A DNA stretch of 63,975 nucleotides, the filler included, from Candidatus Woesearchaeota archaeon (GTDB taxonomy: Archaea; Nanobdellota; Nanobdellia; Woesearchaeales; BM511), in assembly GCA_023266675.1 (NCBI GenBank). It is 5 parts of 5 records of this genome, joined end to end, with 100 filler letters (N's around TTAATTAATTAA, not from the genome) between each part and the next. Parts side by side here need not be neighbours in the genome. Positions count along the whole stretch, not along the records: positions 48,777 to 57,539 come from JAHFPP010000057.1; 4 more parts are not named here. One strand, 5' to 3'. Under the pieces are notes generated by a model, which did no database searches, was not told the origin of the DNA, and was given only the letters and a program-made list of their open reading frames with translations. Shown one piece after another: positions 30,853-57,639 of this stretch (position 1 is the first letter of the stretch; each line of letters begins with the position of its first letter). The position numbers and the translations under genes are program-made.

Positions 30853-30952
30853 NNNNNNNNNNNNNNNNNNNNNNNNNNNNNNNNNNNNNNNNNNNNTTAA
30901 TTAATTAANNNNNNNNNNNNNNNNNNNNNNNNNNNNNNNNNNNNNNNNNNNN
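30853..30952. other. Artificial contig linker
   Basis: N-run, TTAATTAATTAA (stops in all frames), N-run. Confidence 0.99.
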
Positions 30953-39770: not shown

Positions 39771-39870
39771 NNNNNNNNNNNNNNNNNNNNNNNNNNNNNN
39801 NNNNNNNNNNNNNNTTAATTAATTAANNNNNNNNNNNNNNNNNNNNNNNNNNNNNNNNNNNNNNNNNNNN
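39771..39870. other. Artificial contig linker
   Basis: N-run with TTAATTAATTAA. Confidence 0.99.
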
Positions 39871-48676: not shown

Positions 48677-48776
48677 NNNNNNNNNNNNNNNNNNNNNNNN
48701 NNNNNNNNNNNNNNNNNNNNTTAATTAATTAANNNNNNNNNNNNNNNNNNNNNNNNNNNNNNNNNNNNNNNNNNNN
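48677..48776. other. Artificial contig linker
   Basis: N-run with TTAATTAATTAA. Confidence 0.99.
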
Positions 48777-48777
48777 G

Positions 48778-49326
48778 GGCGGCAAATGGTCAAAGGAATT
48801 AGCTGAAGAAAATCTTTTACGAACACACACAACAGTGCTATCAGCAGAATACTTAAAAAAAATAAATGAAGGCGAGTTTAAAACCCCTGCAAAATTCTTC
48901 TCAGTAAACAAGGTTTTTAGAAATGAATCGCTTGACTGGAAACATTTGTTTGAATTCAATCAGGTCGAAGGGATAGTAATTGACCCAAATGCAAATGTAA
49001 AACATCTTAAAGGATACTTACGGGAGTTTTTTGGAAAGATGGGGTACACAGACATAAGAATGAGGCCAGCGCACTTCCCATATACTGAGCCAAGCTTTGA
49101 AGTTGACGTTTATAATCCAAAAAGAAAAACATGGGTAGAGCTTGGAGGCGCAGGGATATTTAGACCTGAAGTCACAAAAACATTAATTGGAGTTGAAGTA
49201 CCAGTTCTCGCATGGGGGCTTGGTATGGAAAGGATAATCACAGAATACTTTGAAATAAGCGACTTACGTGAGCTTTACAAGAACGACTTAAAGCAGTTAA
49301 GAAGAATGAAAGCGTGGATGAAATGA
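48778..49326 (+). CDS. pheS: Phenylalanyl-tRNA synthetase alpha subunit, C-terminal part
   Basis: LRTHTT, VFRNE, EFNQVEG, FPYTEPS, GIFRPE, AWGLGMER. Confidence 0.96.
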   Translation, partial: GGKWSKELAEENLLRTHTTVLSAEYLKKINEGEFKTPAKFFSVNKVFRNESLDWKHLFEFNQVEGIVIDPNANVKHLKGYLREFFGKMGYTDIRMRPAHFPYTEPSFEVDVYNPKRKTWVELGGAGIFRPEVTKTLIGVEVPVLAWGLGMERIITEYFEISDLRELYKNDLKQLRRMKAWMK

Positions 49327-49496
49327 TGAATAAAAAAGATTCATATAAAATGGAATACGGAAAAGAAAGAATGATGATTGGAGTATTACTCTTAGTCTCT
49401 TTAATCTTCATATACCTTCCTTCATCTGTTATACCTATGAAACATATAGCCGCCTTAATGATAGGCGCTACCGCAATATATCTAATGCTGAGTTAA
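49323..49496 (+). CDS. Small two-TM protein between pheS and pheT
   Basis: ATGA overlap with the pheS stop, two hydrophobic helices, ends 6 nt before pheT. Confidence 0.6.
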   Translation: MMNKKDSYKMEYGKERMMIGVLLLVSLIFIYLPSSVIPMKHIAALMIGATAIYLMLS

Positions 49497-49502
49497 AACA
49501 AA

Positions 49503-51905
49503 ATGCCACAAATAACAATAAATAGAAAAGTGTTTGAAACACTCGTTGGACGAAAGCTGCCTATCGAAAAGCTAAAAGACAGAATAAGCTATTTAGGAAC
49601 TGATCTTGATGAAATAACTGATGACGAGATAATGGTTGAAATTTTCCCAAACAGACCGGACATGCTGTCAGAACAGGGATTTGCACGGGCATTTTCAAGC
49701 TTCATCGGTGAAAAAACAGGTCTAAGAAATTATGAAGTAAAAAAAGGCGGCAAAGATTATAAAGTAATAATAGATGATTCATTAAAAGATGTAAGACCAT
49801 ACACTGCGTGCGCAATTGTTAAAAACCTTAAGTTTGACGACGAAAGAATAAGGGAAGTAATTCAGATACAGGAGAAGCTTCACATCTCCTACGGACGTCA
49901 GCGAAAAAGAGTTGCAATAGGAATTTATCCTCTTGAAAAAATAACGCTTCCAATAACATTCAAAGCAATGAAGCCTGACGAAATAAACTTTGTGCCGCTT
50001 ATGGCAGACGACAGCAAAGCTCAAAATGAAGAAAGCGGACAGACAATAAAATTGTTCTGGGAAAACCCTTATCTCATAAAATGCAAAGCAAAAGTTGTTC
50101 AAATAAATGGCAAAAAAGTAAAACTTGATCAAACAATATTCTATGCTTTCTCAGGAGGGCAAGAATCAGACTCAGGAACTATCGGTGATATAAATGTTCT
50201 AAGCGCTGTAAAGCAGGGTGACAAGGAAAGCATAATTAATATTGAGTACGAGCTGGAACATGAGCCAAATTTTAAAGTTGGAGACGTTGTTGACGTAAAA
50301 ATTAATAAAGAAAAGCGAGGAAAGCTCATGAGGCTGCACTCAGCAGCACACATAATATATTATATTGTTTATGAAAAACTTGGAAAGCTTAAAATAATTG
50401 GCTCAAACATAACAAGCGAGAAAGCAAGAATGGATTTTGAATACGACAAGCCATTAAATGAAGTTTTGCAGGAGATAGAATCAGACGTTAATAAATTAAT
50501 TGAAGAAAATCACAAAATAGAAATGTATGGGGATGAAAAAAACCAAAGCCTAAGATGGTGGAACTGCAAAGAATACAAGATGCCATGTGGTGGAACACAC
50601 GTAAGTTCAATGCAGGAAATAGGGAAAATACAGTTAAAAAGAAAAAATATCGGAGCAGGAAAAGAAAGAATTGAGATATACCTATCTGAAGAAGAAAATC
50701 TGCATTTTTATTCTCAAGAAAAATATGAAGAGCAAAAATCAAAAATAATTGCTCCTAAAATAATGACTGCAAAACAGATTCTTGAAAATCACCCGACTGG
50801 AAAAGAATACGCGCCACTTTTGCACGGGCTTAAAAAATACCCGATATTTATTGACACAAAAGGAAAAATACTCTCAATGCCTCCAATAATTAACAGCCAT
50901 GACATAGGCAAGGTTACGGAAAAAACAACAGACGTGTTCATTGAATGCTCAGGTTTTGACTTTGAAGTGCTGTCAAAATGCCTAAATTTCATAGTAACTG
51001 CGCTGTCTGACATGGGAGCAGAAATATATGAGATGGAACTTGATTATAAGGACAATAAAAAACATACTCCTAACTTAAATCCGCTCGAAATGAATGTTGA
51101 CCATGATTACATAAACAAGCTTTTAGGGCTTGAATTAAAAGATGGCGAATTTAAGGAATATTTTGAAAAAATGGGATATGCATATCATAAAAACAAGGTT
51201 TTTGTTCCAGCATGGCGTGCAGACATACTTCACCAGGCAGACCTCGCTGAAGATGTGGCAATAGCTTATGGATACGAGAATTTTGAAGAAACAATTCCAA
51301 ACGTCGCAACAATAGGGCACGCAAATGATTTTGAAGTCTTCAAGGAAAGAATACTTGAAGTGCTAGTCGGCCTTGGATTTATAGAAACAAATACGTTTTG
51401 CATAATAAACAAAGATGAGCAGATAAAATTCATGAATTATAACGGCGAAGTTGTTGAACTCTTAAATTCAGTATCAGAAGAATACAACTCACTTAGGTCA
51501 TGGATGACGCCAGCAATGCTTAGCGTATTAAAAAATAACAAGCACCATGAGTATCCGCAGAATATCTTTGAGGCAGGAAAAGTATTCTTAAAAGACAGTG
51601 AAAAAGAGACAGGTGTAAAAGAGGATGTCAGGCTTTGCGTTGCAATATCAGCAGTTGACGCAGACTACACAAGAATAAGGCAAGTTCTTGATTTAATATT
51701 CGAATCATTAAACACCGACTATGAAATAACTGAAACAGAGCACAATTCATTTGTTCCAGGGCGTGTTGCAAGAATAATAAAAGGAGACAAAAAAATAGCA
51801 TATATTGGAGAGATACATCCAAAAGTACTGGAAAATTTTTCGCTTGAAACTCCAACGGCAACGCTCGAATTAAACCTAACCGAGCTTTATTCCATATTAA
51901 AATGA
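49503..51905 (+). CDS. pheT: Phenylalanyl-tRNA synthetase beta subunit with inserted AlaX editing domain
   Basis: NRPDMLS, QEKLH, LSMPPIINS, RADILHQADLAEDVAIAYGY, IGEIHP; insert carries FYAFSGGQESDSG, HSAAH and CGGTH. Confidence 0.95.
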   Translation: MPQITINRKVFETLVGRKLPIEKLKDRISYLGTDLDEITDDEIMVEIFPNRPDMLSEQGFARAFSSFIGEKTGLRNYEVKKGGKDYKVIIDDSLKDVRPYTACAIVKNLKFDDERIREVIQIQEKLHISYGRQRKRVAIGIYPLEKITLPITFKAMKPDEINFVPLMADDSKAQNEESGQTIKLFWENPYLIKCKAKVVQINGKKVKLDQTIFYAFSGGQESDSGTIGDINVLSAVKQGDKESIINIEYELEHEPNFKVGDVVDVKINKEKRGKLMRLHSAAHIIYYIVYEKLGKLKIIGSNITSEKARMDFEYDKPLNEVLQEIESDVNKLIEENHKIEMYGDEKNQSLRWWNCKEYKMPCGGTHVSSMQEIGKIQLKRKNIGAGKERIEIYLSEEENLHFYSQEKYEEQKSKIIAPKIMTAKQILENHPTGKEYAPLLHGLKKYPIFIDTKGKILSMPPIINSHDIGKVTEKTTDVFIECSGFDFEVLSKCLNFIVTALSDMGAEIYEMELDYKDNKKHTPNLNPLEMNVDHDYINKLLGLELKDGEFKEYFEKMGYAYHKNKVFVPAWRADILHQADLAEDVAIAYGYENFEETIPNVATIGHANDFEVFKERILEVLVGLGFIETNTFCIINKDEQIKFMNYNGEVVELLNSVSEEYNSLRSWMTPAMLSVLKNNKHHEYPQNIFEAGKVFLKDSEKETGVKEDVRLCVAISAVDADYTRIRQVLDLIFESLNTDYEITETEHNSFVPGRVARIIKGDKKIAYIGEIHPKVLENFSLETPTATLELNLTELYSILK

Positions 51906-52402
51906 AAATACACTACAATCTGGCAAACGAGAGAAAAAAAATGAATAATATCATTTCGGAAATCAAAAAAACTCCAAATAAAAATATTTTTCTGGAAGTG
52001 TTTGACAAGGCTGAATTTATAGAGAATATTTCAAACTCGCTTAAGAAAGGGGAGAAAATAAGGATAAAAATTGATGAAAAGACAAAAGATTATCCAAACA
52101 TACTTAACACTGACTTGCCGCGTTTTATAATACAGAAGGATTTAGAAAAGGAGCAAATGTCAGTTATTGAACATTTAAAAAATATGGAAGGATTTATTTT
52201 TAATATTAATAAAAAAGGAAATGATTACTTCTTAGAAATACACAGGACACTTGATATAAAACTTAATTTAAAGCTAAAGATTGACAGTGATAAAACCATA
52301 GACCTAAATTTATTGACAGATAAAAAAGGAAAGGACAACATATTTTTTGGGATAAAAAGTTATTACTATATCAGAAAACTAAATGACTTTTCTTTAACTT
52401 AA
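51902..52402 (+). CDS. Hypothetical protein
   Basis: ORF overlapping the pheT stop; no family recognised. Confidence 0.6.
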   Translation: MKIHYNLANERKKMNNIISEIKKTPNKNIFLEVFDKAEFIENISNSLKKGEKIRIKIDEKTKDYPNILNTDLPRFIIQKDLEKEQMSVIEHLKNMEGFIFNINKKGNDYFLEIHRTLDIKLNLKLKIDSDKTIDLNLLTDKKGKDNIFFGIKSYYYIRKLNDFSLT

Positions 52403-52591
52403 CTTCTTAAAACATAATTTTTTTAAATAATAAAAATTTATTATCATAATGTACTATTCAAGTAGATTATATAATACTGACAATAATTTAACTTATGAAT
52501 CTAATATTCAGCAGAATCTTTATAGAAAAAGAGAACGTTGTAGTAGAAGATGCAATGATGCTTGCGATGGATTTAGATGTTGATAATAGCT

Positions 52592-52972
52592 TTATCCAAA
52601 TCTAGTTGCTAAGTTTACCATTCTACCATAAGATATTGCAAATGTAATAAAAAATAATAACCCAATTGCTAATAAGACTCCAATATTCATTATAAAAAAT
52701 AAGAAACATCTTTTAAGTTTAACTTTTTTATCTTCCTGACTATCTATTAAATATACTAAGAATGAAACTAATGCTAAAAAAACAATAAATATAACACCTA
52801 ATATTGCAAAATATTCATTTCCACTATATCCTTTACTAATTATATTATTCATAGTAAATATGGGGTCAATCCATTTTCTTGAGAGTGGATATATAATAAG
52901 AATATATACTAAATCTACTATTATAGATATCAATAATAATTTTAAAATATTAAGATTAATCTTAAATTTCAT
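52592..52972 (-). CDS. Three-TM membrane protein
   Basis: Hydrophobic segments; start refined to MKFKIN. Confidence 0.6.
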   Translation of the reverse strand: MKFKINLNILKLLLISIIVDLVYILIIYPLSRKWIDPIFTMNNIISKGYSGNEYFAILGVIFIVFLALVSFLVYLIDSQEDKKVKLKRCFLFFIMNIGVLLAIGLLFFITFAISYGRMVNLATRFG

Positions 52973-53043
52973 TAAATAACTAAAGAAAATGTTATTTAAA
53001 TATCTATTCATTTGTTAAATATAAATAAAAAATAAAGAAGAGT

Positions 53044-53481
53044 TTATTCTTCCTTTTTTGGAGCTGCTTTTTTCTTTGCAGGAGCCTTTTTAGCTTTGCC
53101 TTCAGAATTATCAGACTTTTTCTCTGCTTTTTCTTTTTTAGCTTCAGTTTTTCTGGCTTCTTTCTTTTCTTTTTTCTCAGCTGATTTTTGTTTGTCAGCG
53201 CCTTTTCTTACGTGAAGCGGTCGAGCTCCAGCTTTTTTTGGTTTTGTTTCCTTGATATCAAGTCCAAATTTCTTAAAAGCTGTCCTGACGTCAGCGCTTG
53301 ATGCGCCTTTCTTCAACGATAATGTTTCCATTAATGGCTCCAAGTGCAAAACATTGCATTTTCTTCTTCTTGTTTCGCCGTCAATTATAACAAATCTGTC
53401 ATCAATAACTTCGACTATAACACATTTTTTTGCTGCATCTCTTCCTGCAAGTTTAATACAAACTCTTCCTACTTCAAACAT
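53044..53481 (-). CDS. rpl14e: 50S ribosomal protein eL14 with lysine-rich tail
   Basis: EVGRVCIKLAGRDA, RRRKCNVLHLEP. Confidence 0.95.
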   Translation of the reverse strand: MFEVGRVCIKLAGRDAAKKCVIVEVIDDRFVIIDGETRRRKCNVLHLEPLMETLSLKKGASSADVRTAFKKFGLDIKETKPKKAGARPLHVRKGADKQKSAEKKEKKEARKTEAKKEKAEKKSDNSEGKAKKAPAKKKAAPKKEE

Positions 53482-53494
53482 TTTATTTCCTCCG

Positions 53495-53550
53495 TGTATC
53501 CTTCCTAAGAATTATTAGTGGCGTCGCCGCTCACTTTTAGGATGGATGTA
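53495..53550 (-). ncRNA. Structured 5' leader of rpl14e (candidate cis-regulatory RNA)
   Basis: AUCC/GGAU and UCCUAA/UUAGGA stems enclose a GUG-A-GCG-GCGA-CGC-CAC GNRA hairpin, directly before GGAGG. Confidence 0.55.
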
Positions 53551-53583
53551 TTTTTTTAAATTATATTAATAAAAATGAAAAAT

Positions 53584-53850
53584 TTATTTTCTTGTTTCGT
53601 CTTTTATCTTCTGCCTTAAACATTTTGAGCATAAAACTCCGCCATATGGTCTTTCTGGTCTCTTCATAGTTTTTGGCATGTTCTGCATTTTTCTTGGCCT
53701 TTCTCTGGCTACGCCTTTTAAAACGTCTCCGCATGTGCCGCAGTGTGCTTTTTTAGGTTTTCTTAAAACGTGATGTAAAACTACTCTGCCGCCAGGGGTC
53801 TTTCTTGATACTCTTCTAAATGTTCTTGATTTGTGTATTCCTGATACCAT
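53584..53850 (-). CDS. rpl34e: 50S ribosomal protein eL34
   Basis: KTPGGR, CGTCG, RPERPYGGVLCSKC. Confidence 0.96.
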   Translation of the reverse strand: MVSGIHKSRTFRRVSRKTPGGRVVLHHVLRKPKKAHCGTCGDVLKGVARERPRKMQNMPKTMKRPERPYGGVLCSKCLRQKIKDETRK

Positions 53851-53902
53851 TGTAGACGTTAGAAATTAGGCTTGATTTAAAAAGATAACGGTTTTTTGAT
53901 AT

Positions 53903-54724
53903 CTAATAAACGTTCATCAATTTTCTTATTAATATTGATAGAATCAGTGAGAATATTATATATGTTCCAAGCCATCCTGGGTGCCATCCTAAAAAGCTGA
54001 AGTTTCCAAAAGGTCTGATAACATTATAGTCAACTTTAAGCTGGTATATGCTGTCTGATTCAACATATCCTTCACTCGATCCATAAATATAATCTATCCA
54101 TGTCATCTTCATTTTTGTCTGTTTTATGTTTGAGTCTCCGCTTCCTACAACTATTTTTTTATCAACAAATTGGTTGTTGTAAACAACACTTATTTTGAAA
54201 TCACCTTCCTTTTGAGGTGATATTATAAAATTAACTTCTGATTCACCATTAACTTTTACTGTTTTTTCTGAAATTAATTTTATTTCTTCAGGGACTGTTA
54301 TTGTCATATCTCCACTTGTGCCTTTTTTTAAGAATAATGTAACATTTGTTTCCTGTCCTACCTGCAGCGGGTAAAATGCGAAGTGTGTTGCTATCCAACC
54401 AAACAATATTATTATCGGAATGAATGTGTAAAGCATTGATTTGAATGATTCACGCATCATATCGCCTGAATGTGAGAATGCCTCTTTTTGAAGCTTCATA
54501 ACTTTTTTAGGATTATCCCTATTTTTTCTCATTTCTTCCTGAAGTTTTTTCTGCTTGTCCCTTACATTTTTAAGAAGTTCCTGGTCCGTTGTGTACTTGT
54601 AGATTACTGTTATGATAAGTGTAATTAGTAGTGAAATTAAAAACAGTCCAAATATTGTTGGTATTTTTAGTATTGGTCCAAGAATGAAGTTAAGTGCAGG
54701 ATCAAATATGTTGAATAGTCCCAT
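53903..54724 (-). CDS. EMC3/TMCO1 (DUF106, Oxa1 superfamily) membrane protein
   Basis: TM, coiled coil, YTFIPIIILFGW, GWLGTYIIFS; canonical position after secY. Confidence 0.88.
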   Translation of the reverse strand: MGLFNIFDPALNFILGPILKIPTIFGLFLISLLITLIITVIYKYTTDQELLKNVRDKQKKLQEEMRKNRDNPKKVMKLQKEAFSHSGDMMRESFKSMLYTFIPIIILFGWIATHFAFYPLQVGQETNVTLFLKKGTSGDMTITVPEEIKLISEKTVKVNGESEVNFIISPQKEGDFKISVVYNNQFVDKKIVVGSGDSNIKQTKMKMTWIDYIYGSSEGYVESDSIYQLKVDYNVIRPFGNFSFLGWHPGWLGTYIIFSLILSILIRKLMNVY

Positions 54725-54732
54725 TTTTTACC

Positions 54733-56157
54733 TTATTTCCCCATGAATTTTCTCATCATAGGATTCATATCATACATATGCTGTTTTGCGATGTCTTCGT
54801 ATAATCTGTATATAATCATAACTGTAAGTAGAAGTCCTGTCCCACTTGATAGTGCCCCTGATAAATCTGCCATTGCGGCCAAAAATCCCACTGTTATTGC
54901 ACCCATTACTGTTAGCGGCATGATATACCTGTCTAAAACTTTTTCAAGAATTCTTTGATCTTTTCTAAAACCTGGTATTTGAAGACCTGATTCCATCATT
55001 TTTTTGGCCTGTGACCTAGAGTCCATTCCGCTTGTTTGAACCCAGAATAATGAGAATATAACTGCGCCGCCGATTAAGATTAGTATATATGTTAAGGCCT
55101 GAATCCATGTCAGCCATCCTATAAAAATTGTTCCCTGTGAAATTATTGCGCTTACTAAGTTAGGTCCTGTCACCCATGGTCTAACTGCCTGTGCTGCTGA
55201 TTGTCCTCCAAAAAGGCTTACCCAAAGCTGCACGTTAGCAAGGAGTGCCGCGACTAATATAACTGGGATGTTTGATGTGTAAATGAATGATAAAGGCCAT
55301 CTTATGCCGTGTCCTCTTACTCGTCCAAATGATAAAGGTATTTCAACTTTCATTGCTTGCGCATACACTGCAACGACAAAAACAAGTATTGTAGCAAGCA
55401 CTGCTGCTAAAAGAAGGAATGCGGTTGTTGAGTCGCCCGCTGCTATGGACTGGAAAAATGCAGGTATTGCTCCTGCAGATATATCAGGATTAGTTGGTGA
55501 CGGCAACGGATTTATTGCTCGAAGCAATATAGATTTTGATACCCCTGCAGCGATGAAAAGTGATATTCCTGAGCCAAATCCCCATTTTGAGACAACTTCA
55601 TCCATAAGCATGACGAGTATTCCTCCAAGCATTAATTGGAAGATAAGTGCAAGTTTTAAAGTCATAATCATTGTTCCTGTTAAAGCAATTGCGCCAGCAG
55701 TTCCTACTGCCAAAAACTGATTTGTTGCAGGGTCATAGAATGCTCCAGGTGAGAGTCCTCCCATGAAAACATAAATAGCTGCCTCAAATAATATGAATAA
55801 TAATGAGAATAATTTCTGTGTTCCCTGAAAATTCTTTTTACCTTCATGAGTGTTTAAGTCAAATTTTACTAGACCTGATCCGTTTAATAATTGTAAAACG
55901 ATTGATGCAGTAACAAGCGGTCCTATTCCAAGGCTCATTATAGAGCCGAATTCTGCTCCAAGAATTATTGAAAGATATTGAAACTGCTGAAGTGCGTTGT
56001 TTCCAAGGCCAAACAATGGAATCAAACCTAATATGAAGAATAATACAAGTATAACTAGAGTCCACTTGATTTTCTGCTTAAAACCAAGCTTTGCTTCCGT
56101 TGGTCCCTTTATCTCAGGAAGATTTGATACTATATTAGTGTATAACCCCATAATCAT
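54733..56157 (-). CDS. secY: Preprotein translocase SecY
   Basis: LGIGPLVTASIVLQLL, KWGFGSGISLFIAAGV, YTSNIPVIL, IPGFR, GTGLLLTV. Confidence 0.97.
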   Translation of the reverse strand: MIMGLYTNIVSNLPEIKGPTEAKLGFKQKIKWTLVILVLFFILGLIPLFGLGNNALQQFQYLSIILGAEFGSIMSLGIGPLVTASIVLQLLNGSGLVKFDLNTHEGKKNFQGTQKLFSLLFILFEAAIYVFMGGLSPGAFYDPATNQFLAVGTAGAIALTGTMIMTLKLALIFQLMLGGILVMLMDEVVSKWGFGSGISLFIAAGVSKSILLRAINPLPSPTNPDISAGAIPAFFQSIAAGDSTTAFLLLAAVLATILVFVVAVYAQAMKVEIPLSFGRVRGHGIRWPLSFIYTSNIPVILVAALLANVQLWVSLFGGQSAAQAVRPWVTGPNLVSAIISQGTIFIGWLTWIQALTYILILIGGAVIFSLFWVQTSGMDSRSQAKKMMESGLQIPGFRKDQRILEKVLDRYIMPLTVMGAITVGFLAAMADLSGALSSGTGLLLTVMIIYRLYEDIAKQHMYDMNPMMRKFMGK

Positions 56158-56306
56158 AAAGATTTATGATTTATTTAAAAAGCTAACGATTTTTGGCACT
56201 ATTTCCTTCGTCAAGAGTATTTAAAAAGATAATAATTTTTACATTTTTTCTATATTAATTATTTTCACCCTAAATCTTTATATATAATTTAATTAAAACT
56301 ATTCAT

Positions 56307-56804
56307 ATGCTATCCAACAACAAATATGTGCATGCTTTAGTCAGGAGACTGATTATCCTTTTTGTTGTTACGATATTTGCTTTTGTAATACACAGGGTTT
56401 CTTTGTCTTTGCATCATCAGATTTTTGGCGCGATAATATTCATCATACTTTTCACGTCAAGCCTTCTTTACTATTACATTACTCTGTTTAAAACCAAAGT
56501 CATGCATCCTATCGAGTTTTTATCAAGTCTCTTCTTAGTATTTTTTCTGACGATTTTGATGTTTTCATTAATCTATAACGAGCCTATCAATGACTCAGAG
56601 ACATATTTTATAGAAAATGGTGCTGTAAAAAATGACCTTTCTTTCAGTTCATCATTTTATTTTTCTACAGTCACAATAACAACGCTCGGATATGGAGACA
56701 TAGCGCCAGTAGGGTCATACAGATTTTTTGCGATGACAGAAGTTATGCTTGGCTTAATATACGGCGGCACAATAATTTATTTTTTGACTAGAGCGTTTGA
56801 ATGA
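56307..56804 (+). CDS. Potassium-channel-family protein
   Basis: FYFSTVTITTLGYGDI selectivity filter. Confidence 0.9.
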   Translation: MLSNNKYVHALVRRLIILFVVTIFAFVIHRVSLSLHHQIFGAIIFIILFTSSLLYYYITLFKTKVMHPIEFLSSLFLVFFLTILMFSLIYNEPINDSETYFIENGAVKNDLSFSSSFYFSTVTITTLGYGDIAPVGSYRFFAMTEVMLGLIYGGTIIYFLTRAFE

Positions 56805-56880
56805 ATAATTTCTTCTCGATATTATATTAAATGTATTGTTAAGAACCTTTAAATATTAGATAAATCAGACTTATTAATAT

Positions 56881-57539
56881 ATGAAATATATTTTGATTCT
56901 CATATGTATATTTACATTATTAGTAGGATGCTCTCAAATCAAAACAGAAAATTCATCAAGTTTAAATGAGTCACAAAATCTAAAAAATAACGAAACTCAT
57001 ACCATTGAGATTTACAAGCCAAACCCCCTAAATAGTACTGAATTAGTTAAAGTTGCAAAGGTTGTAGATGCTTCAACATCTGAAACCAACAATCTTGTTG
57101 CAGGGATGGTTAACTATGAACATGGTGCCTTTCAAAAAGCCATCGAAAATTTTAATGTAGTTCTAAAGACAGATATGAATAATAACGTGGCATTATATTA
57201 TCGAGCATTAACTTACTTTAGTTTAGGAGAATATGATGATGCTATAAAAGATGCAGATGAATTAATAAAATTAACACCTAAAGATTCTGCTTTGTATGTT
57301 ATGCGTGCTTCATTCAATACTGAATATGAAAATTACGAAGCTGCCCTTAAAGACTATAATGAAGCGATAAAAATTTCTCCTGAAAATATATCAATCTATT
57401 TTTTAAGAGCAGACCTAAAAGAATTTTTAAATGATTCTAATGGCGCAATTAAAGATATGGATATAGTAATACAAATTGATTCAAACTCATCAAAAGCGTA
57501 TGTGTATAGAGCAGACTTTAAATTCTCCAATAATAATGT
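56881..57539 (+). CDS. TPR-repeat lipoprotein, cut by gap
   Basis: Lipobox LVGC; repeated YYRA...Y..AI.D...I...P units. Confidence 0.85.
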
Positions 57540-57639
57540 NNNNNNNNNNNNNNNNNNNNNNNNNNNNNNNNNNNNNNNNNNNNTTAATTAATTAANNNNN
57601 NNNNNNNNNNNNNNNNNNNNNNNNNNNNNNNNNNNNNNN
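57540..57639. other. Artificial contig linker
   Basis: N-run with TTAATTAATTAA. Confidence 0.99.

Follow-up and report, generated by a model that had tools for sequence, protein, structure and literature searches.

An archaeal phenylalanyl-tRNA synthetase beta subunit with a whole AlaX-M module nested in its B3/4 editing domain

Editing domains are normally regarded as serving the synthetase that carries them. How, then, should one read a gene in which an intact-looking enzyme for the editing of tRNA(Ala) errors lies within the editing domain of the tRNA(Phe) enzyme? The question is raised by an open reading frame (ORF) of Candidatus Woesearchaeota archaeon (GenBank assembly GCA_023266675.1), located at 49503..51905 (+) of the stretch of DNA analysed here (the window, 63,975 nucleotides with filler), which consists of five contig pieces separated by spacers of 44 N, TTAATTAATTAA and 44 N (30853-30952, 39771-39870, 48677-48776 and 57540-57639). 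This ORF, pheT::alaXM, encodes an archaeal phenylalanyl-tRNA synthetase (PheRS) beta subunit, PheT, with a whole AlaX-M nested in its B3/4 domain; its product is referred to below as P0001, and all features of the gene given in the following are on the + strand.

The host part of the protein (800 amino acids (aa) plus stop) is a regular archaeal PheT. With 503.7 bits (E 5.9e-151) it exceeds the TIGR00471 (pheT_arch) cut-off of 282.65; the match is divided into two stretches flanking the insert, the second of which runs from aa 421 to 794 on profile positions 171-549. The N-terminal part (aa 1-166; 49503..50000) comprises B1 (Pfam PhetRS_B1, aa 1-69) and the first half of B3/4 up to its last strand, ..INFVPL, and the C-terminal part (aa 421-800; 50763..51902) starts with MTAKQILENHPTG and comprises the second half of B3/4, B5 (Pfam B5, aa 530-591) and the catalytic-like module B6/B7 (Pfam tRNA_synthFbeta, aa 596-792). 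Archaeal PheRS beta subunits are without the B2 and B8 domains, and the order B1, B3/4, B5 and B6/B7, with neither B2 nor B8, was recovered here by Pfam, by alignments (2cxi, 3l4g_B) and by Foldseek. Against Pyrococcus horikoshii PheT (2cxi), aa 1-166 align with residues 1-168 and aa 420-591 with residues 173-348; the insert of 254 aa (50001-50762) therefore replaces a four-residue B3/4 loop, in a variable surface loop between strand ..FVPL166 and helix M421-TAKQIL. The Pfam B3_4 match itself stays under its cut-off (25.5 versus 29.3 bits) because the domain is interrupted by the insert, and a precomputed B3_4 match is also missing in several unfused relatives. A preliminary description of this DNA had proposed a normal PheT up to aa 166 that resumes at aa 421, with an in-frame AlaX in between, and the domain, structure and alignment matches bear this out.

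The insert has the composition of an AlaX-M, with an N-terminal beta-barrel carrying a glycine-rich motif, an editing core and no C-terminal DHHA1/C-Ala domain; it differs from a free-standing (trans) protein in being nested in PheT, in frame at both ends. All motifs singled out in the preliminary description are found where it had placed them, namely LFWENPY at aa 184-190, LDQTIFYAFSGGQESDSG at aa 208-225, RLHSAAH at aa 277-283 and MPCGGTHV at aa 360-367. The glycine-rich motif, FSGGQESD, includes the GGQ at aa 218-220 (50154..50162), and HSAAH (aa 279-283; 50337..50351) and CGGTH (aa 362-366; 50586..50600) correspond to HxxxH and CxGxH, given as the zinc-binding motifs of AlaX in the accessible text of PMC12003907. 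Pfam places an AlaRS-type barrel (tRNA-synt_2c) at aa 193-270 and tRNA_SAD at aa 358-391, the latter nested, as had been anticipated, within the interrupted B3/4; there is no DHHA1 match in the insert. Taken alone, the insert is matched by NF040865 (AlaXM) with E 3.5e-46, and residues 4-215 of the AlaX-M structure 2e1b align full-length with insert residues 14-228 (E 2.8e-40). Free woesearchaeal AlaX-M proteins are ~216 aa long, 60-71% identical to the insert and cover 84-86% of its 254 aa. From this length and coverage it follows that the insert is a whole AlaX-M (aa 180-394; 50040..50684) with two linkers: one of 13 aa on the N-side (aa 167-179, MADDSKAQNEESG; 50001..50039), outside the alignments with free AlaX-M and with PheT, and one of 26 aa on the C-side (aa 395-420, SEEENLHFYSQEKYEEQKSKIIAPKI; 50685..50762), past the end of free AlaX-M.

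In an AlphaFold2 model built on alignment A3 (76 rows), the mean pLDDT is 89.9 and values below 50 occur only in the linkers (aa 169-177 and 407-416) and at aa 601-603; the linkers are accordingly predicted to be flexible. Foldseek recovered both of the expected folds from this model, that of PheT with 2cxi_A (TMt 0.92, across the insert) and 3l4g_B (TMt 0.73), and that of AlaX-M with 2e1b (TMt 0.91, root-mean-square deviation (rmsd) 1.9) and 9iuw (TMt 0.91, rmsd 2.3).

Conserved residues are kept in both modules. In 120 free AlaX-M, 68 columns reach a conservation of 95% or more; the insert matches 65 of them, including the zinc ligands H279, H283, C362 and H366 and GGQ 218-220; the GGQ is invariant in the 120 free AlaX-M and in all 15 fused proteins described below, and both zinc-binding motifs are conserved in free and fused forms. 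For the host PheT, the reference is a set of 105 unfused PheT with 124 columns conserved to 90% or more, of which it keeps 121, and 70/71 in the B3/4 region. Residues L202, S211, D234 and T236 of P. horikoshii PheRS, which we take to be editing residues (presumably those of Sasaki et al. 2006), map to F449, S458, E481 and S483, all of them conserved to 99% or more among the 105 unfused relatives. In the gap-free 2cxi alignment, Asn464 (50892..50894) is the counterpart of P. horikoshii Asn217, described as an editing-site residue in the accessible text of PMC3275996, and it is invariant in alignment A1. Judged by their sequences, both modules look functional, and the conserved residues kept in each of them uphold, at this level, the earlier proposal of a synthetase with two unrelated editing modules.

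Can the fusion be trusted? The gene lies wholly within one contig of 8763 nt (window 48777-57539) of a 1.22-Mb draft genome that is 95.9% complete. With a draft of 83 contigs and a window joined from several of them, a chimera of assembly or binning has to be considered, but we regard it as exceedingly improbable: both junctions are in frame, the insert agrees with the remainder of the gene and with the genome in GC content, in GC content at third codon positions (GC3) and in codon usage, and composition is uniform along the gene. A Logan contig of 4717 nt from run X1 (groundwater metagenome) spans 49300-52100, and with it the whole gene and both junctions, with 0 differences at depth 7; run X1 may be the source sample, so that this contig stands for an independent assembler and not for independent reads. 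In addition, P0002 (798 aa, NCBI), from another assembly and contig, carries this insert at the identical site, on linkers that are recognisably homologous. The chimeric assembly allowed for in the preliminary description is thus not supported. An origin of the insert as a mobile element or intron was considered separately and rejected, as there are no direct or inverted repeats at 50001 and 50762 and composition and codon usage are like those of the host.

What else in the genome could act on tRNA(Ala)? Its AlaX-type modules are the editing domain of AlaRS, a 384-aa AlaX-L with DHHA1 and the PheT insert, and no free AlaX-M was found in a search of the 95.9% complete draft. The AlaX-L/DHHA1 protein (G000:C46; L003 973..2127 and L036) is encoded ~3.4 kb downstream of the ThrRS gene. 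The possibility that AlaRS and ThrRS of this genome lack editing domains, which the preliminary description had wanted checked, did not hold: the AlaRS domain has intact motifs, and ThrRS carries the archaeal editing domain.

The tRNAs themselves bear on the choice of substrate. AlaXp-M is reported to select G3:U70 and to hydrolyse Ser- and Gly-tRNA(Ala), and B3/4 to clear Tyr and m-Tyr (PMC11295145, PMC12003907). The tRNA(Ala)GGC of the genome has G3:U70. Its tRNA(Phe) candidate (GAA; G000:C77:755-861 (-), locus L072 16-122), missed by ARAGORN and found with the Rfam tRNA model (48.6 bits), has G1-C72, a G2-U71 wobble and G3-C70; 34 nt are inserted behind its anticodon arm, where the position would be non-canonical for an intron. 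G3:U70 was found in none of the eight readable tRNA(Phe) genes (from 16 loci in the genome and its relatives), and G2-U71 in two of them, those of the genome under study (G000) and of G027.

How widespread is the nested form? No insert-bearing PheT was found in 60 relatives, whose PheT frames are 524-601 aa long and pair with both query halves in directly adjoining stretches, or in another 400 genomes of the order; in the three genomes from the same family the insert had no match at E 1e-20, and a search of genome contigs for related loci found no relative. In the 400 genomes of the order, insert-like sequence is limited to free genes (~209-290 aa), AlaRS and one 952-aa fusion, the free genes being 45-67% identical to the insert and present in ~23 genomes. 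Among 5.8 billion proteins, at least 15, P0001 included, have both PheT and AlaX domains, this being the number in the best 120 of 3126 matches. By alignment these are of two classes: P0001 and P0002 have the insert in B3/4, and P0003-P0015 have a C-terminal AlaX-M. The latter, which represent 13 clusters at 90% identity, are PheT proteins of ~786-807 aa with the AlaX-M behind a 30-50-aa linker, labelled as Woesearchaeota and Aenigmarchaeota metagenome-assembled genomes and annotated only as PheT. In a search of 1.84 billion 50%-cluster representatives, only P0243 and P0014 of the best 150 matches are of ~800 aa with three matched stretches. A C-fused PheT was not found in a 400-genome sample of the phylum; a few genomes in this sample and in that of the order carry a flag as unpublished, and no single statement made here depends on them. 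With a degenerate DNA pattern for KLFWENPYL, 17 loci were hit, 15 with bacterial titles and two with archaeal titles (L045 and L051); the latter two were read, both hold a free AlaX-M, and they brought no additional insert-bearing PheT.

Other unusual modules turned up in these searches. The 952-aa fusion (L041 943..3801; G045:C25) is a class II LysRS (anticodon oligonucleotide-binding (OB) fold and catalytic core) followed by a solo B3_4 (aa 568-698, E 1.8e-22) and a C-terminal AlaX-M, whose motifs are intact and which is 43% identical to the insert. Another genome (L042 1501..3804; G361:C1) encodes a 767-aa PheT with a second, C-terminal B3_4 (aa 631-740, E 2e-26), from which it follows that PheT accretes different editing-type modules in the order; a 762-aa frame on G327:C10 is probably also a PheT of this kind, and the family of the L042 PheT holds the free AlaX-M closest to the insert (67%). 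A further free AlaX-M, P0178, is 65% identical to the insert and labelled 'Patescibacteria group bacterium' at NCBI, which could reflect mis-binning or a transfer between bacteria of the candidate phyla radiation (CPR) and DPANN archaea.

Phylogenies place the inserts and the C-terminal modules apart. In the AlaX tree, the inserts of P0001 and P0002 are sisters (SH-aLRT 92) nested in the clade of free woesearchaeal AlaX-M, with the 13 C-terminal modules grouped in a clade of their own (100, a starred value); in the tree of the PheT core, C-fused proteins stand in at least three separate places. The separate AlaX clades and PheT lineages point to at least two independent joinings of AlaX-M and PheT. 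Identity between the two inserts is 64.9% across the full length, linkers included, and 70% over 222 tree-aligned columns. The history within the nested class is less straightforward: the PheT nearest to P0001 is P0016 (551 aa, from a Logan contig of 2804 nt), with a core identity of 82.8% compared with 74.6% for P0002, and P0016 has no insert. The PheT tree has the form (P0002,(P0001,P0016)), with support of 95/95 and 100/96, and the approximately unbiased (AU) test rejects a clade of P0001 and P0002 (p 0.0099), although this group was chosen with the tree already in view. Two explanations offer themselves, a near-precise deletion of the insert in the lineage of P0016 or a transfer of the insert allele through recombination.

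What could such a protein do? The reading that we consider probable is that of a trans-acting Ser/Gly-tRNA(Ala) deacylase tethered to a PheRS scaffold, beside an unchanged Tyr-tRNA(Phe) editing function; catalytic activity, substrate and benefit of the tethering are inferred. In the proposed mechanism, a complete AlaX-M gene product would have been inserted in frame into the B3/4 surface loop of the PheT of a woesearchaeal (DPANN) archaeon from groundwater, giving a single chain in which the AlaX-M module (aa 180-394) may fold independently and hang on its two flexible linkers. The module would keep the standard task of AlaX-M as a zinc-dependent hydrolase of Ser- and Gly-tRNA(Ala), with free mischarged tRNA as its substrate in trans, and there would be two copies of it per (alpha-beta)2 PheRS, while the B3/4 site presumably continues to clear Tyr-tRNA(Phe). 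The PheRS scaffold could give the cell's only AlaX-M a fixed expression and a place near the translation machinery. We favour this reading because the catalytic features are intact and the linkers flexible, because the insert is the only AlaX-M of the genome, because tRNA(Ala), unlike tRNA(Phe), bears the G3:U70 determinant, and because the attachment point and even the partner vary (PheT C-terminus, LysRS). Of the two functions put forward in the preliminary description, a scaffold carrying the AlaX-M of the cell is therefore the one that the evidence favours, and a broadened proofreading of tRNA(Phe), which here is without G3:U70, is less favoured.

Several points weigh against the tethered deacylase. 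The insert scores 157.8 bits with NF040865, below the equivalog cut-off of 300 bits; no module reaches this cut-off in a search of the genome itself, where the AlaRS editing domain comes top with 172 bits, and the model seems to be narrower than the woesearchaeal AlaX-M clade. The pTM of the AlphaFold2 model is 0.59, and how the module is placed with respect to the B3/4 pocket is not readable from it. The closest PheT, P0016, is without the insert, which is therefore dispensable in at least one close lineage. Finally, the fact that AlaX-M was fused twice independently to one subunit might point to a specific tie with PheRS or tRNA(Phe), and not to a scaffold that is neutral.

This last point leads to the alternatives. 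The AlaX module could be a second cis-editing site that takes the 3' end of PheRS-bound tRNA(Phe) and frees it of a small non-cognate residue for which B3/4 is not suited. The place of the insert directly after L166, inside the editing domain, the repeated joining of AlaX-M to PheT and the unusual G2-U71 wobble that adjoins 3:70 in the tRNA(Phe) candidate all fit this idea, but the G3-C70 of that tRNA and the missing G3:U70 in all readable tRNA(Phe) genes do not, and G2-U71 is shared by G027, a genome in which the search met no insert-bearing PheT. The amino acids that PheRS is known to misactivate are moreover Tyr and m-Tyr, and Ser and Gly are not among them (PMC11295145), the residues of the AlaX pocket are the same as in free AlaX-M, and long flexible linkers as well as attachments at the C-terminus and on LysRS speak against a fixed geometry, so that we find cis-editing unlikely. 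It is likewise unlikely that PheRS and AlaX-M are real functional partners, their repeated independent joins (within B3/4 in this protein, C-terminal on PheT in other DPANN archaea and next to a solo B3/4 on LysRS) reflecting a form of quality control around PheRS or tRNA(Phe) that is yet to be discovered. If this were true, the free AlaX-M of ordinary archaea may also work at PheRS; the predicted complex of a plain PheT with the free AlaX-M of the same genome (G171; alignments A4 and A5) gave an ipSAE of 0.00, which counts neither for nor against.

Two further alternatives were weighed. The module might be a tolerated passenger, inserted in frame by accident, without a selected function here and in the course of being lost, as could be suspected from the rarity of the form and from P0016, a protein without the insert that the tree groups within the pair possessing it. 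This is quite unlikely in our view, since P0001 and P0002 are only 74.6% identical in their cores, yet the module is kept in both, each insert retaining 65 of the 68 conserved columns, and since the genome is without another AlaX-M. Even less likely, we think, is a non-catalytic helper, that is, an additional appendage for tRNA binding or for enhanced aminoacylation that compensates for the missing B2 and B8 domains. An AlaX-like domain on apicomplexan TrpRS offers a precedent (PMC3680381, accessible text); that domain, however, has lost HxxxH and CxxxH, whereas all four zinc ligands are kept here along with the conserved AlaX-M columns, and close unfused PheT relatives work without the module.

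How does this arrangement compare with known systems? Free AlaX-M proteins (P. horikoshii PH0108, 2E1B; P. furiosus, 9IUW; the ~216-aa woesearchaeal 'alanyl-tRNA editing proteins') share the fold, the motifs and a match over the whole length, but here the module is no separate protein and is nested by linkers in the editing domain of another enzyme. Archaeal and eukaryal PheRS beta subunits (P. horikoshii, 2CXI; human, 3L4G_B) have the same domain order and the conserved editing-site Asn, the difference being the 254-aa insertion in place of the four-residue loop that follows FAPL168 in P. horikoshii. In the PheT proteins with a C-terminal AlaX-M (P0003-P0015; representatives P0243 and P0014), the same two partners form one chain and the AlaX motifs are kept; their module, however, is at the C-terminus behind a lysine- and glutamate-rich (K/E-rich) linker, belongs to a separate AlaX clade and is carried by other PheT lineages, as the product of an independent fusion. 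In apicomplexan TrpRS, too, a module of the AlaX family is tethered by a linker to a synthetase other than AlaRS or ThrRS, but as far as the accessible text of PMC3680381 goes it is N-terminal, AlaX-S-like, devoid of its zinc ligands and involved in tRNA binding, in contrast to the internal AlaX-M with intact motifs described here. The cis-editing domains of AlaRS and of bacterial-type ThrRS have the same fold and zinc motif and are likewise borne by a synthetase (accessible text of PMC12003907 and PMC11580382); they edit the product of their own synthetase, whereas the host considered here charges a different tRNA and has an unrelated editing domain of its own.

No description of a PheRS-AlaX architecture was found in full-text literature searches, and AARS Online lists AlaX only with AlaRS and ThrRS in the accessible text of PMC11580382. 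A fusion already common and annotated, which the preliminary description had listed as a refutation, is not what was found: the form is rare, and the database entries are named plain 'phenylalanine--tRNA ligase subunit beta'. The nested PheT insert is thus a rare and apparently undescribed form. As the C-fused archaeal PheT and the LysRS-B3_4-AlaX-M fusion fit the same theme of AlaX-synthetase fusions, it is a new variant of a recurring, unpublished fusion pattern in small genomes.

Around the gene, the 3' part of pheS, encoding the PheRS alpha subunit, lies upstream of pheT at 48777..49326 (+) and is cut by the contig end (tRNA-synt_2d E 1.4e-50, profile 98-245). A split pheS was considered and rejected, the 163-aa PheS fragment (48835-49326) being merely truncated by the contig end at 48777. 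A small hydrophobic ORF (49327-49497, +), recognised by eye, fills the gap between pheS and pheT, and a 166-aa ORF (51902-52402, +) without a Pfam match overlaps the pheT stop by 4 nt.

What, in our view, follows from this locus? The B3/4 loop after FVPL tolerates a domain of 254 aa, which is useful for PheRS engineering, and P0001, P0002 and P0016 are a clean gain/loss system for studies of domain insertion. If the module acts on tRNA(Phe), it would reveal an unknown mischarging problem. If it acts in trans, the protein would be a natural synthetase scaffold for the quality control of another pathway in a minimal genome, and a prokaryotic analogue of multi-synthetase complexes.

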